64,000 bases of DNA from an uncultured bacterium (GTDB lineage Bacteria > Patescibacteriota > Minisyncoccia > Phycocordibacterales > UBA6065), in contig CBIMES010000001.1 of assembly GCA_966243015.1 (NCBI GenBank), positions 143,995 through 207,994 on the forward strand. The letters are read 5' to 3'. Within the stretch, counting starts at the first letter, position 1. Every line of letters starts with the position of its first letter. Under the pieces are notes generated by a model. That model was not told the origin of the DNA and ran no database searches. It was given only the letters and a program-made list of their open reading frames with translations. Of the stretch, positions 24,193 to 56,540 are shown one piece after another. The translations under genes were made by a program, and so were the position numbers.

Positions 24193-25050
24193 CTAGGGGC
24201 GTGCGGCAATCGTGAGCCTCTCCAATCCTTTCGCGTAGATATTCCAGACTTCGGAAGCGACGAGTGTCTTTGCGTATACGCGAACCTCGTCTATGTGGCC
24301 CTGGAAATATTCGCCATCCGAGCAGGCACTTGAACCCGCCTCGGCTCCGATACAGAGAGGGTTGTTTACCGCGTAGTTCACAGGACCATTGGGCGTCGCA
24401 TTTTCCGCAACCTGCTTTCCGTCGAGATAAAGCCTGATTGTATCGCCGTCATAGGTTACGAGCGCGTGATGCCATGTGTTCGGCGATATGCTCGAGATTG
24501 GCGTTTTGGCGGCGTGCCAGGTTCCCCCTACGTTGAGGAGCCCGCACAGGCCGCCCGTTCCGCCGCAAGCCACGGCCTCGTTGATGGCCAGGCTGTATCC
24601 GCCGGTTTGGGACTTGGAGATGATGCGCCTTGGACCGGTGATTGACGAAGCGTTGAACCAGGCCCCGAAGGACACTGCGGACGTTGGGGCGAGTTCGGCG
24701 GAGTGACCGATTGTGACGCGGCCGGTCGATCCATTAAGCTGAAGAGATTGCCCCGTGCCTGAATAGGTATTTGCCGAGGTGACGCTTGCTCCCGTTGAGA
24801 GTGTCCCGTTGTTACCGCCAGCTCCGTTGATCGCAGTCGTTCCCGAATCCGCGTCAAAGTCCCACATGCCGGCGACCTGGTCTCCCATGGTGCGAAACGT
24901 CTGGGCGGAGAACTGCCTCGCCGCGCCGAGGCGCGCTTTCTCGCGCGCCGAGTTGAGGCTCGCGAGGACGATGCTCGAGAGCAGGCCGATGATGGCGATG
25001 ACCACGAGGAGCTCGATGAGGGTGAAGCCCCTGTTCCGATGAGATGTCAT
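24193..25050 (-). CDS. type IV pilin-like protein with a LamG/concanavalin-A-like lectin domain
   Basis: N-terminus [26 protein letters not shown]; LamG-type signatures ([42 protein letters not shown]). Confidence 0.7.
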
Positions 25051-25121: not shown

Positions 25122-25170
25122 CTGCGCGGGCGGGCCGAAAGGCCCGCCCGCGCAGTCTTCTCTTTTTATG
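25122..25170. terminator. Rho-independent terminator (33-nt perfect hairpin)
   Basis: CTGCGCGGGCGGGCC-gaaa-GGCCCGCCCGCGCAG followed by TCTTCTCTTTTT; between murA and the pilin gene. Confidence 0.65.
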
Positions 25171-25181
25171 CGATGCTTTTC

Positions 25182-26750
25182 TTAGAGATCCCTGAACACC
25201 TCGATCTTCGCGCCGATGGCATTGAGACGATTGGCGAGGTCCTCGTATCCGCGGTTGATGTTGTAGACGTTGCGGAGCACCGACGTTCCCTCGGCCGCGA
25301 GCATGCCGAGCATTATAATCACGGACGGGCGAAGGGCGGGAGGGCAGACAATTTCGGTTGCCTTGAGCTTCGTCGGGCCTTTCACATAGAAGCGGTGCGG
25401 ATCGGCGAGGATGGTCTCGGCACGCATCTTGTCGAGTTCCTTGTAATAGATCGCTCGCTCTTCGTACACCCAGTCGTGGATGAAGGTCTGACCCTCCGCC
25501 TGCGTGCCGATGATGGCGAAGAAGGGGAGGTTGTCCATGTTGATGCCCGGGTATGGTTGAGCGTGAATCTTCTCCTCGAGGGCGACGAGCTTCGACGCGA
25601 AGGTTTGGATGTCGACGAGGTTGGTCTTGCTGTTGTCGGCCTTGTATCGCTTCACGATTTTGTACTTGAACCCCATCTTCTCGAGCTTGAGGAGCTCGAG
25701 CTCGAGGAAGTCGATGGGGCAGCGCTCGATGGTGATTGATGACTTGGTGACGATGGCCGCGGCGAGGAGTGACATTGCCTCGATGGGGTCCTCCGAGAGG
25801 AAATACTCAATGTCCTTCTTCACGCCGTTCTTGCTGCCGTCGATGCCGTGTACGGTCATGGTCGAGGTGCCGATGCCGTCGATCTTCGCGCCGAGGAGCT
25901 CGAGGTAGAAGCAGACGTCCTGGACCTGGTAGTTCGCAGAGGCGAACTTCACGGTCGTGGTGCCGGGGATGAGCGCCGCCGCCATGAGCACGGCCTCGGT
26001 CACGGTGTCTCCCGCCTCGTACATGACGACTTCGCGGTCCTTCTTGAGGCCGTCGTGCGAGACGTGGTAGTACTCTGAGCTGGTCTCGATCTTCACGCCG
26101 AGTTTCTCGAGGGCGTAGACGTACGGCTTGATGGTTCGGGAGCCGAGTCGGCAGCCTGACGCCTGAGGGAGGTCAAACTCCTTCATTCTGTGAATGAGCG
26201 AGCCGACCATCATGATGACGGAACGGGTCTTCGCCGCGGAGTCGTAGGCGATGTCCTTCATGGCGAATTTCTCGGGCGGGGTGATGTGCAGATCTGGGCC
26301 CTTCCATTCGATCTTCACGCCGATGGACTCGAGCACCTCGGCGATGCGGTTTACCTCCTCAATCTTGGGAGTGTTCTTGATGACGGTCGTGCCGCGGTTC
26401 ATGAGCGATGCGCACATGAGGCCGACGGCGCCGTTCTTCGACGTGCGCACCTTGATCGAGCCCGAGAGCTGATGTCCTCCCTCGATGCGGAAGTTGACCG
26501 TGCCACCCTTCGCGAGGGAGACGATCTCCTGGCCGAGCGCCGCCGAGAGCTTGGCGAGGGTCTCGGTCGACAGGTTCTGCTCGCCCTTCTCGATGCGGGC
26601 GATGACGGACTGGGTGGTGCCGATCTTCTCGCCGAGCTCGGTCTGGGTCATGCGCCTGTCCTCGCGGAGGCGGGCGATCATGAGGCCGATAGAGGCGAGG
26701 GCTTCGGCAGGCTTGCTCTCCTTCGCGGTTTTTTTGGTTTTGGTGGGCAT
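25182..26750 (-). CDS. murA: UDP-N-acetylglucosamine 1-carboxyvinyltransferase with an N-terminal HTH (XRE-type) domain
   Basis: ~70-aa N-terminal XRE-like HTH (RMTQTELGEKIGTTQSVIARIEKGEQNLS). A full MurA body follows, with FRIEGGHQLSGSIKV..., the conserved active-site region and the C-terminal NINRGYEDLANRLNAIGAKIE. Start placed at MPTKTKK. Confidence 0.8.
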   Translation of the reverse strand: MPTKTKKTAKESKPAEALASIGLMIARLREDRRMTQTELGEKIGTTQSVIARIEKGEQNLSTETLAKLSAALGQEIVSLAKGGTVNFRIEGGHQLSGSIKVRTSKNGAVGLMCASLMNRGTTVIKNTPKIEEVNRIAEVLESIGVKIEWKGPDLHITPPEKFAMKDIAYDSAAKTRSVIMMVGSLIHRMKEFDLPQASGCRLGSRTIKPYVYALEKLGVKIETSSEYYHVSHDGLKKDREVVMYEAGDTVTEAVLMAAALIPGTTTVKFASANYQVQDVCFYLELLGAKIDGIGTSTMTVHGIDGSKNGVKKDIEYFLSEDPIEAMSLLAAAIVTKSSITIERCPIDFLELELLKLEKMGFKYKIVKRYKADNSKTNLVDIQTFASKLVALEEKIHAQPYPGINMDNLPFFAIIGTQAEGQTFIHDWVYEERAIYYKELDKMRAETILADPHRFYVKGPTKLKATEIVCPPALRPSVIIMLGMLAAEGTSVLRNVYNINRGYEDLANRLNAIGAKIEVFRDL

Positions 26751-27035
26751 GGTTCGGTGCTTATGGGTAAGTGAGAAACAGTATAGCATATATGCTATAC
26801 ATTTAAGACGGTGCTGTGGATAAAAAAGCACGCAGGGGAGGCGTGCTGAGGGGGGTCTATCTTCTTGTGAGGGAGGCGACGATCCAGGCTGCGAGCAGGA
26901 GGGCCAGAAGGCCAGAGACGACGGACGATACGGTGAGGCCCTGCCATTTCCCGGTGTCGCACCCGTGGCTTTCGCTGGTCGATGGGGAGGGGTCGGCGTT
27001 CATTTCATCACCATAGTGCCCCCGTCGTGTCCAGA

Positions 27036-27069
27036 TGTCAACAAAACATCCGCACCTGAGTGCGGATGT
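27036..27069 (-). terminator. Rho-independent terminator
   Basis: ACATCCGCAC-tcag-GTGCGGATGT followed by TTTGTTG on the minus strand. Confidence 0.6.
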
Positions 27070-27403: not shown

Positions 27404-28417
27404 ATGGCCATATTTACGAAGAAACTCGGCATTGACCTCGGCACCGCGAACACCCTCGTGTTCATTCCCGGCAAGGGCATCGTCCTCAACGAGCCTTCGG
27501 TGGTCGCTGTGTCCGAACAGGACAACAAGATTCTTGCCGTCGGTGTCGAGGCGAAGAACATGATTGGCCGAACGCCGGAGTCGATCATCGCGTACCGTCC
27601 GATGAAGGACGGCGTCATCGCCGACTATCGCGTGACCGAGGCCATGCTCCGGTACTTTATCGACAAGGCTCTCGGCAAGTGGAACATCTGGAAGCCAGAA
27701 GTCCTCGTGTCCGTTCCCGCGGGCATCACCTCGACCGAGCGACGAGCCGTCGTCGAAGCTGCCGTGAAGGCGGGCGCCAAGAATGCCTATGTGGTCAAGG
27801 AGCCGATCCTCGCCGCCATCGGCGCGGGCATCCCGATTCAGGAGGCGCGCGGCCACATGATCGTCGACATCGGCGGGGGTACGACTGACGTCGCGGTCAT
27901 CTCGCTCGGTGGCATCGTGTCCTCGACTTCGGTCAAGTGCGCCGGCAACAGGATTGACGCCGCCATCGCCGACTACATCAAGAAGACCTTCAACCTCGCC
28001 ATCGGAGACAAGACCGCCGAGAACATCAAGATCCAGATCGGTTCGGCCGTTCCTCTCGAGGAGGAGCTTTCCATGGTCATCAAGGGACGAGACTTCGTCT
28101 CGGGACTGCCGCGCTCGACCGAGCTTAAGTCGAACGAGGTGGTCAAGGCGATCACCCGCGAGCTTCGCGACATGGTGAAGGCGATCAAGGACGTGCTCCA
28201 GGAGACTCCTCCCGAGCTCGCCGCCGACATCATCGACAGCGGCATCATCATGACCGGGGGATCGTCCCAGCTCCGCAACCTTCCCGAGCTCGTCTTCCGT
28301 CGCACCGGCGTGAAGGCCGTCCTCGCCGAGGACCCTCTGTACTGCGTTGCCAAGGGAACCGGCATCGCGCTCGAGCATCTCGAGACGTACAAGAGGACGA
28401 TTATTTCGAAGAGATAA
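27404..28417 (+). CDS. mreB: rod shape-determining actin homologue MreB (paralogue 1)
   Basis: LGIDLGTANTLVF phosphate-1 motif, IVDIGGGTTDVAVIS phosphate-2 and the adenosine motif; 337 aa. Confidence 0.9.
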   Translation: MAIFTKKLGIDLGTANTLVFIPGKGIVLNEPSVVAVSEQDNKILAVGVEAKNMIGRTPESIIAYRPMKDGVIADYRVTEAMLRYFIDKALGKWNIWKPEVLVSVPAGITSTERRAVVEAAVKAGAKNAYVVKEPILAAIGAGIPIQEARGHMIVDIGGGTTDVAVISLGGIVSSTSVKCAGNRIDAAIADYIKKTFNLAIGDKTAENIKIQIGSAVPLEEELSMVIKGRDFVSGLPRSTELKSNEVVKAITRELRDMVKAIKDVLQETPPELAADIIDSGIIMTGGSSQLRNLPELVFRRTGVKAVLAEDPLYCVAKGTGIALEHLETYKRTIISKR

Positions 28418-34107: not shown

Positions 34108-34689
34108 ATGAATACTCAGAAAGGATTCACCCTCATCGAGCTCCTCGTCGTCATTGCCATCATCGCGCTTCTCTCGAGCGTGGTTTTATCGTCTCTTAAT
34201 ACGGCTCGCGCTAAATCCCGCGACGCGTTGCGCATGTCCCAGATGAATCAAGTGATGAGCGCCCTCGAGATGTATTACGCCAAATACGGCTCATACCCCT
34301 ATGGAAACAGTGGCTCGCTTAATACCGAGGGCGCGAGGAATAATTCGTGCAATAATGCGGGGTCGAGCCTGGGTGAGCCGATGGGCGAGTGGGATAACGT
34401 GATGCAGCTCCTCGTGAACGAGGGGTTCTTGGGCGGCATTCCGCGCGATCCGATCAATACGGGCTATGCGAGCACAGGGAACAGCAGGTGCTACAAGTAT
34501 TCCTCCTACACGGCTGATGACGGCCTGTACAGGCGCTGCAGCACAAACGCGGTCGGCGACAGGGATATCCCTATACGCAACTACGGCTACGTCCTTATGT
34601 TCTCCTCCGAGGCAACAACCTTCAAATACCCGCTTTCTGGTTGGCCAGTCAACATCTATACGTATTGCGTTCTTGGCCCTGCAAAATAG
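34108..34689 (+). CDS. type IV pilin-like protein
   Basis: N-terminus [24 protein letters not shown]; 193 aa; 10 nt downstream of the giant gene. Confidence 0.7.
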   Translation: MNTQKGFTLIELLVVIAIIALLSSVVLSSLNTARAKSRDALRMSQMNQVMSALEMYYAKYGSYPYGNSGSLNTEGARNNSCNNAGSSLGEPMGEWDNVMQLLVNEGFLGGIPRDPINTGYASTGNSRCYKYSSYTADDGLYRRCSTNAVGDRDIPIRNYGYVLMFSSEATTFKYPLSGWPVNIYTYCVLGPAK

Positions 34690-48931: not shown

Positions 48932-49026
48932 TGTGGTGTCGTGATAAACGGTTGTAAAAATGTGGATAAAAATGTTTGATTGTGGGAACGGGTGTTATAA
49001 AATGTTATGTAAGTGGGAAGAAGTGG
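48932..49026 (+). promoter_or_regulatory. array of five phased (T)GTGG(G) boxes; candidate MraZ operator and dcw promoter
   Basis: GTGG begins at 48933, 48962, 48982, 49013 and 49023; the spacings 29/20/31/10 nt are multiples of about one helical turn; directly upstream of mraZ. Confidence 0.5.
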
Positions 49027-56416: not shown

Positions 56417-56540
56417 TTCGCGTACAGTGCGCCTCTTATCCACAGGCCCCTATGTGCTGCTCGCGCTTATTCTGCTACGGTGAAAAGTGGGCGGGAGTTC
56501 ATCAAAAACCAGACACAAAAATCAAACCATGAGGAAACTA

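Follow-up and report, generated by a model that had tools for sequence, protein, structure and literature searches.

Introduction

Some metabolic enzymes also act as regulators of transcription, as captured in the concept of 'trigger enzymes', and PutA and NadR are enzyme–regulator fusions of this kind. Biotin protein ligases exist both with a DNA-binding domain (group II) and without one (group I) (PMC4016012, PMC4462617), and the archaeal protein RbkR is a metabolic enzyme with a covalently attached DNA-binding domain, through which genes of its own pathway are controlled (PMC5397151). Here we describe a fusion of this type in cell-wall synthesis. It is encoded in a stretch of 64,000 nucleotides (nt) from an uncultured bacterium of the Patescibacteriota (assembly GCA_966243015.1, contig CBIMES010000001.1, positions 143,995 to 207,994), referred to below as the window, where an XRE-type helix-turn-helix (HTH) domain precedes a complete MurA in a single protein, HTH-MurA. 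This protein probably binds a specific operator at its own promoter and autoregulates its gene, as a bifunctional enzyme and autorepressor.

MurA, which fosfomycin targets, carries out the first committed step of peptidoglycan synthesis. Canonical MurA is controlled through ClpCP/ReoM-dependent proteolysis in Firmicutes and through tight binding of UDP-N-acetylmuramic acid (UDP-MurNAc); to our knowledge, the known regulation of MurA is post-translational and does not include transcriptional self-control. Full-text searches of the literature found no description of an HTH-MurA fusion. The fusion is already present in databases, unremarked, under annotations of plain MurA or 'helix-turn-helix domain-containing protein'. 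New here are a conserved operator and promoter, the joint loss of HTH and operator, a link to antitoxin-type HTHs, pseudoenzyme offshoots and a culturable host, Nonomuraea.

Results

An HTH domain fused to a complete MurA

The gene is one uninterrupted reading frame on the minus strand (26750..25182) that encodes a single protein of 522 amino acids (aa) plus a stop codon, with the following parts.

25182..26750, minus strand: HTH-MurA coding sequence, with its ATG at 26750 (list of open reading frames, Pfam, NCBIfam and homologues)
26529..26711, minus strand: XRE/Cro-C1 helix-turn-helix domain, residues ~14-74 (Pfam HTH_3, AlphaFold helices and invariant columns)
26496..26528, minus strand: inter-domain linker, residues ~75-85 (low AlphaFold confidence at 78-82)
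25197..26495, minus strand: MurA (UDP-N-acetylglucosamine (UDP-GlcNAc) 1-carboxyvinyltransferase) domain, residues 86-518 (catalytic equivalents present)

Pfam places HTH_3 (PF01381) on residues 25-74 (E=5.1e-14) with 52.5 bits against a cut-off of 23, and the HTH similarity proposed in an earlier, sequence-only reading of the window thus passes a profile search. In the AlphaFold model, which has a mean predicted local distance difference test (pLDDT) of 86 and a predicted template-modelling score (pTM) of 0.79, the HTH helices span residues 14-31, 36-43, 47-54 and 62-72, with pLDDT of 82-91 over residues 21-60. The predicted recognition helix, residues 47-54, lies inside the segment TTQSVIARIE, and T46, Q47, S48, A51 and R52 are identical in all 38 aligned homologues. 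Solved MurA structures match only from query residue ~72-86 onward (best match 5ujs, E=2e-50), and the first ~75-85 residues are therefore a true N-terminal extension, in keeping with the ~75 residues that the sequence-only reading had expected relative to canonical MurA. Structure searches returned no PDB chain that covers the HTH as well as the MurA fold.

The remainder of the protein matches Pfam EPSP_synthase (PF00275; residues 90-508, E=2.4e-40) over profile positions 2-416 of 417. It passes the NCBIfam MurA subfamily model NF006873 (316.3 bits; cut-off 297) and scores below the cut-off of the stricter equivalog TIGR01072 (303.6 versus 392.7 bits), and is therefore a divergent MurA; its identity to Escherichia coli MurA is ~29%. 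Equivalents of the catalytic and substrate-binding residues K22, N23, R91, C115, R120, D305, R371 and R397 (E. coli numbering, in which the reference sequence agreed with the literature) are all present in the window protein. The same eight residues are found in 80 of 81 related sequences, the remaining one ending at a contig end. Moreover, Foldseek superposes the MurA part of the model on crystal structures with a template-modelling score of ~0.9. Judged by its sequence, the window protein is a working Cys-type MurA and, being of that type, is predicted to be fosfomycin-sensitive. The window contains neither a second murA nor a second related HTH. Taken together, Pfam, NCBIfam, the structure matches and the catalytic residues bear out the initial claim of a Cro/C1-type HTH and a complete MurA in one open reading frame, and both peptide strings quoted for it occur in the translation.

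The longest frame, 26831..25182, opens with a GTG at 26831; this start was rejected, because it would bury the conserved promoter and operator described below in coding sequence and because homologues begin at or downstream of the ATG at 26750. It had also been considered that translation might begin after the HTH, and the sequence offers no plausible internal start for an intact stand-alone MurA: Met is absent between residues 35 and 109, and the sole in-frame GTG lies 4 residues ahead of the K22 equivalent. No stop codon separates the HTH and MurA parts in the window gene or in 74 related species.

The same fusion is found lineage-wide. Among the best 120 homologues from 5.8 billion proteins, every one except a truncated entry has both Pfam domains, and the fusion is therefore neither a chance event nor an assembly artefact. 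Homologues with names come from metagenome-assembled genomes of Paceibacterota, Parcubacteria, Taylorbacteria and Patescibacteria. A GTDB scan with one genome per species yielded 80 loci, among whose titles are Taylor-, Nomura-, Kaiser-, Campbell-, Lipton- and Doudnabacteria; the fused form is encoded at 74 of them. In clusters at 50% identity, fused proteins reach down to ~32% identity. HTH-MurA is the standard form of MurA in the Paceibacteria/Parcubacteria, a group of the candidate phyla radiation. The sequence-only reading had called the fusion unusual, which holds relative to model bacteria but not within its own lineage. That the fusion might stem from a frameshift, from faulty assembly or from two genes mistaken for one can practically be dismissed, given the uninterrupted architecture in more than 100 independent assemblies (NCBI, JGI, ENA and Logan) and in Nonomuraea isolates, and given a linker whose length is kept among homologues.

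A palindrome over the predicted murA promoter

A palindromic site that the HTH could bind had been sought in 26751-26860, and a perfect 18-bp palindrome, with the halves TATAGCATA and TATGCTATA, lies there 31 nt 5' of the ATG.

26782..26799 (20 bp with flanking G/C: 26781-26800), no strand: palindrome, proposed HTH operator; unique in the window and conserved with the fusion
26780..26788, minus strand: predicted extended -10 element TGcTATACT, made up of the palindrome's right half and 2 further nt (positional conservation; TTG 17 nt upstream in relatives)

The palindrome is present in a single copy in the window even when up to 3 mismatches are allowed (0 expected), and there is therefore no evidence for a local regulon. 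Across 75 fused loci (the relatives plus the window), it occurs with ≤3 mismatches within 250 nt upstream of the gene in 72; the best sites have 0 mismatches in 18 loci, 1 in 27, 2 in 20, 3 in 7, 4 in 2 and 6 in 1. Elsewhere in those loci (536 kb), there is one other match at ≤4 mismatches. When the 75 sequences are aligned on the motif, a sharp block of information at positions 1-18 is set in unconserved intergenic DNA. Within this block C6 and G13 are invariant, and changes at position 5 are mirrored at its symmetric partner, position 14 (G/C in 51 loci, T/A in 9). The left half plays no part in the promoter, yet it is conserved as strongly as the right half.

Conservation extends beyond the palindrome to the T at position 20 (26780; 95%), and the aligned loci share TTG at -9..-7, a 17-nt spacer, TG at 12-13 and TATAcT at 15-20. 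This layout reads as a predicted sigma-70-type extended -10 promoter, with the palindrome over the spacer and the -10 element, which is the classic position of a repressor site. A start codon follows in frame 5-11 nt past the -10 (mode 7-8 nt) in 37 of the 75 loci, a spacing that would correspond to the geometry of leaderless messenger RNAs; for the window murA transcript a leader of ~22 nt is predicted.

Joint loss of the HTH and the palindrome

Unfused relatives allow the palindrome to be compared with the presence of the HTH. Across six unfused murA loci, the palindrome (≤3 mismatches) is found in none, versus 72 of 75 fused loci (Fisher p=2.6e-7). At the unfused locus L071, the -10 half TATGCTATAgt remains and the left half has decayed. 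No HTH gene lies within ±3 kb of the six unfused murA loci; a split gene in these relatives was rejected, as tblastn with the HTH returned nothing there, even when E values of up to 10 were admitted. A neighbour-joining tree built on the MurA domain nests unfused sequences in fused clades at three places, two of which fall among the six tested loci; the third branch, P0121, is outside the operator test. Unfused MurAs are 66-70% identical to the window protein, closer than many fused ones (56-62%). Because the unfused sequences are both nested in fused clades and closer to the window protein, the HTH was lost secondarily, and the operator with it.

The palindrome beyond murA

A metagenome scan that started from the palindrome itself, as the exact 18-mer TATAGCATATATGCTATA, returned at least 120 loci (L086-L205). 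In 118 of the 120 listed, the motif lies outside any long open reading frame, in an intergenic-like position. Among the matches listed, 93 have enough flanking DNA to be assessed, and 77 of these carry a gene for a related XRE HTH within 800 nt, which is an HTH-MurA in 7 cases and a stand-alone HTH protein in 70. The stand-alone proteins are typically ~95-100 aa long and up to 48% identical to the window HTH; ~22 of their genes (again among the matches listed) sit second, after a Gp49/HigB-like (PF05973) toxin gene or a related toxin-like reading frame. That related HTH genes accompany the palindrome in metagenomes supports assigning the HTH to it, independently of the murA loci. On this evidence the palindrome is the hallmark of a single XRE subfamily, whose other members are typically antitoxins of toxin-antitoxin systems, and the fusion, these loci suggest, arose by murA capturing an antitoxin-type HTH-operator cassette. 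NCBIfam antitoxin models match the window HTH weakly (TIGR03070, 40.6 versus a cut-off of 71.65; HipB and HigA far under their cut-offs). Among the matches listed, Gp49-like toxins are seen solely at stand-alone HTH loci, and there is no toxin gene next to the window murA, whose neighbours are a pilin-like LamG protein, a 48-aa open reading frame and mreB.

Two of the metagenome loci, L163 and L165, contain two copies each of TATAGCATATATGCTATA. At a further locus, L133 (1348-2672), an exact palindrome with no nearby HTH lies ahead of a 428-aa protein in which L,D-transpeptidase-like (HG...SGGCIR) and M23-peptidase-like motifs were recognized by eye, without a profile search; this gene could be a cell-wall target regulated in trans or a chance match.

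These data bear on an alternative in which the palindrome does no more than serve a promoter, possibly one that works in both directions, or form a hairpin in RNA or DNA, and in which the HTH serves for protein contact or for tethering to the nucleoid or division site. The right half does fit an extended -10 element, the palindrome was scored as a weak terminator-like hairpin, and the symmetric covariation suits a hairpin as well as a dimer site. Yet the left half is equally conserved, while position -2, where a leftward -10 would have its critical final T, is A in only 32% of loci. Moreover, the palindrome decays exactly where the HTH has been lost, and it accompanies related HTH genes in unrelated operons. 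In the loci with a start codon close behind the -10, it would stay untranscribed, and the T-run past it is not conserved. An Rfam gathering scan of the window returned two tRNAs only, with no family upstream of murA, and a known RNA element there was rejected on this basis. A bidirectional promoter shared with the divergent mreB was also rejected, because mreB has its own -10 and the leftward hexamer is without the critical T. Overall, we consider a promoter element or hairpin without a role as HTH operator very improbable. The idea that MurA is tethered to DNA or to the division site, which the sequence-only reading had offered beside autoregulation, finds no support, with one specific site per 64 kb located on the core promoter.

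Nonomuraea and catalytically dead paralogues

One cluster of HTH-MurAs, 51% identical to the window protein, comes from isolate genomes of Nonomuraea (Actinomycetota) and keeps all eight catalytic and substrate-binding residues. The gene is preceded by ATCTCATATGTGAGAT, 12 nt before the start codon, within DNA of 70% G+C (L081). In Nonomuraea phyllanthi (L081/L082; CP045572.1 5667057-5680586), it lies 16 nt past a formyltransferase/enoyl-CoA-hydratase fusion gene and directly before a phage-integrase gene. The context suggests an accessory, possibly transferred, second murA.

In a further small group of divergent fused proteins (P0129, P0131, P0143, P0149, P0150, P0190 and P0206), the Cys115 loop and most substrate-binding residues have been lost and the HTH is well conserved. 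P0143 is divergent from a canonical murA-murB operon, with a Mur ligase gene next (L085 2714-8001), and TATAACATATATGCTATA is found in the 84-nt intergenic region, 9 nt ahead of the P0143 ATG. The canonical MurA beside it is 26% identical to the window MurA and complete in its catalytic residues except for the R371 equivalent, which is Q. P0206 lies behind murB and relA/spoT with AATATCAAATATGATATA upstream (L084 3388-7467), and P0150 is the last gene of a NUDIX-nucleotidyltransferase operon headed by TATATCATATAGGATATA (L083 4685-7554). L083, L084 and L085 are all low in G+C (32-39%), and each has an operator-like palindrome. The dead paralogues keep both HTH and operator; thus, the regulatory half is maintained where catalysis is gone.

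Such proteins lend weight to a second alternative, that HTH-MurA is chiefly a regulator of transcription whose regulon takes in further cell-wall genes (for example, mreB, murB and Mur ligases), with catalysis secondary and the MurA fold serving mainly as an effector or dimerization domain. It overlaps with the autorepressor reading and is compatible with it. Besides the position of the dead paralogues next to murA-murB and a Mur ligase gene, murB and relA/spoT, and the NUDIX-nucleotidyltransferase operon, it is consistent with the palindrome ahead of the L133 protein and with the arrangement of mreB, which is the divergent upstream neighbour of murA in 65 of 80 species and begins 36-100 nt from the operator in 27. 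However, no complete Paceibacteria or Nonomuraea member deviates at any of the catalytic residues, the 64-kb window shows no second MurA, and there is one operator per window and per 7.5-kb locus, except in L007 and L063. The -10 element of mreB also stands apart from the palindrome. A wider regulon with subordinate catalysis appears unlikely.

Proposed mechanism

In the autorepressor model, the N-terminal XRE HTH of a catalytically competent MurA would bind the 18-bp palindrome, presumably as a dimer; the bound protein would block RNA polymerase at the sigma-70-type murA promoter, and negative autoregulation would then set the level of MurA. Most likely, therefore, the enzyme shuts down expression of its own gene; the literature searched holds no description of such control in cell-wall synthesis. 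We infer repression, as opposed to activation, from the position of the operator alone, and dimerization on the palindrome is assumed. The suggestion in the sequence-only reading that the HTH could autoregulate murA gains strong comparative support, as the palindrome is retained across species along with the fusion and is missing where the HTH has been lost.

Several points weigh against this model. MurA is normally monomeric, and the palindrome would need two paired HTHs. The right half doubles as the -10, so that the promoter explains part of its conservation. The co-occurrence of HTH and operator rests on about 3 independent HTH losses, placed on a tree without support values. In the metagenome scan, 16 of the 93 assessable loci among the matches listed have no related HTH nearby, and some of these 16 hold a Gp49-like gene or HTH genes that are more distantly related. 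The murA operator could also be bound, or competed for, by a stand-alone paralogue in the same cell. Finally, the dead paralogues have lost most substrate-binding residues, which weakens the idea of substrate sensing discussed next.

As a tentative extension of the autorepressor model, the MurA fold may be an allosteric sensor, in which occupancy by UDP-GlcNAc, phosphoenolpyruvate or UDP-MurNAc, acting through the open/closed transition, would set the affinity for DNA and make HTH-MurA a trigger enzyme; we regard this as conceivable, although doubtful on balance. MurA passes through a large open/closed change. The structure matches include solved MurAs with bound UDP-MurNAc (3swd, 3su9, 3swe and 8d84), and such structures of canonical MurA indicate that the fold can report pathway state. 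If the fold does act as a sensor, the pool of peptidoglycan precursors would feed back directly, through a single protein, on transcription of the gene for the first committed step. The same scaffold would later, with catalysis lost, have turned into a transcription factor devoted to murA-murB and nearby cell-wall genes.

Neighbourhood of murA in the window

Three further features flank the gene.

26827..26847, minus strand: terminator-like hairpin and T-run, which closes the upstream small open reading frame
25122..25155, minus strand: G+C-rich terminator-like hairpin, 27 nt past the murA stop codon
26815..26823, minus strand: TTATCCACA motif (DnaA-box consensus sequence), 15 nt upstream of the palindrome

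Because the hairpin at 26827..26847 ends the upstream small open reading frame, murA forms its own transcription unit. The gene for MreB (PF06723, E=4e-136) lies at 27404-28417 on the plus strand, ~600 nt from the window murA, and the 48-aa open reading frame and two hairpins are found between them. This small frame (26857-27003, minus strand) encodes a C-terminal hydrophobic helix and has no Pfam match; ahead of it are a hairpin with a perfect 10-bp stem (27046-27069) and, close to its ATG, a promoter-like stretch TTGACA...TATGGT. Type IV pilin-like proteins with an N-terminal methylation motif are encoded at 24193-25050 (minus strand) and 34108-34689 (plus strand), the former directly downstream of murA and also bearing a concanavalin/LamG domain (PF13385, E=8e-27).

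The motif TTATCCACA occurs three times in the window against 0.16 expected (26815-26823, minus; 48961-48969, minus; 56436-56444, plus). All copies are intergenic, and those at 26815 and 56436 come after a terminator-like hairpin. In 18 of 75 relatives the motif ends 11-27 nt upstream of the murA operator (32 of 75 at ≤1 mismatch), and there are 9 exact matches elsewhere in the relatives' loci (514 kb). In compact intergenic regions between divergent mreB and murA, its reverse complement lies inside the mreB promoter spacer. Some toxin-antitoxin-type loci also carry the motif, with a constant spacing to the palindrome, and it is found ahead of the -10-like boxes of unrelated genes. Candidate roles are a DnaA site, the site of another factor or a promoter element.

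Comparison with known systems

If confirmed, a MurA with its own repressor domain and operator would bring a new and very compact logic to the control of cell-wall synthesis, and the Paceibacteria, a large, uncultured and regulator-poor lineage, would have it as their default MurA. The unfused lineages, in which HTH and operator are both lost, provide natural 'knock-outs', and Nonomuraea provides a cultured host. A likely evolutionary path leads from an antitoxin-type HTH-operator cassette, captured by a housekeeping enzyme, to a pseudoenzyme transcription factor beside murA-murB in a few lineages.

HTH-MurA shares its fold and catalytic residues with canonical MurA and differs from it in the added domain, as neither a solved MurA nor any MurA described in the literature searched has a DNA-binding domain. 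HigA-like XRE antitoxins of type II systems (with Gp49/HigB-like partners) share with HTH-MurA the identical 18-bp palindrome at the operon promoter, and antitoxins classically autorepress through a palindrome that overlaps their promoter. In contrast to these antitoxins, HTH-MurA scores under the family cut-offs, has no adjacent toxin, and carries its HTH fused in cis to a housekeeping enzyme. The dead paralogues (P0129, P0143, P0150, P0206 and others) instead resemble the MocR/GabR regulators, in which an enzyme fold has become a non-catalytic module; like these, they adjoin genes that they probably control. The folds are different, with a GntR-type winged HTH and an aminotransferase fold in MocR, and an XRE HTH and an enolpyruvyl-transferase fold in the pseudoMurAs.

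HTH-MurA is no sequence relative of BirA, PutA, NadR, RbkR or MocR/GabR. PutA, NadR and RbkR combine other DNA-binding folds with other enzymes, none of them in peptidoglycan synthesis, and ligand- or redox-dependent switching has been demonstrated for them. BirA, the group II biotin protein ligase and bio-operon repressor, likewise has an N-terminal HTH-type domain on an active enzyme and a palindromic operator that overlaps the promoter of its own pathway genes, and the group I and group II ligases parallel the unfused and fused MurAs. BirA differs in its winged HTH and unrelated enzyme fold, where HTH-MurA has an XRE HTH, and in that its DNA binding is driven by the biotinyl-AMP intermediate, whereas no effector is known for HTH-MurA. 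Moreover, BirA represses biosynthetic genes, and the target of HTH-MurA would be the gene of the enzyme itself. With trigger enzymes in general, HTH-MurA has in common a DNA-binding domain on an enzyme predicted to be catalytically competent, and a proposed operator in its own promoter.

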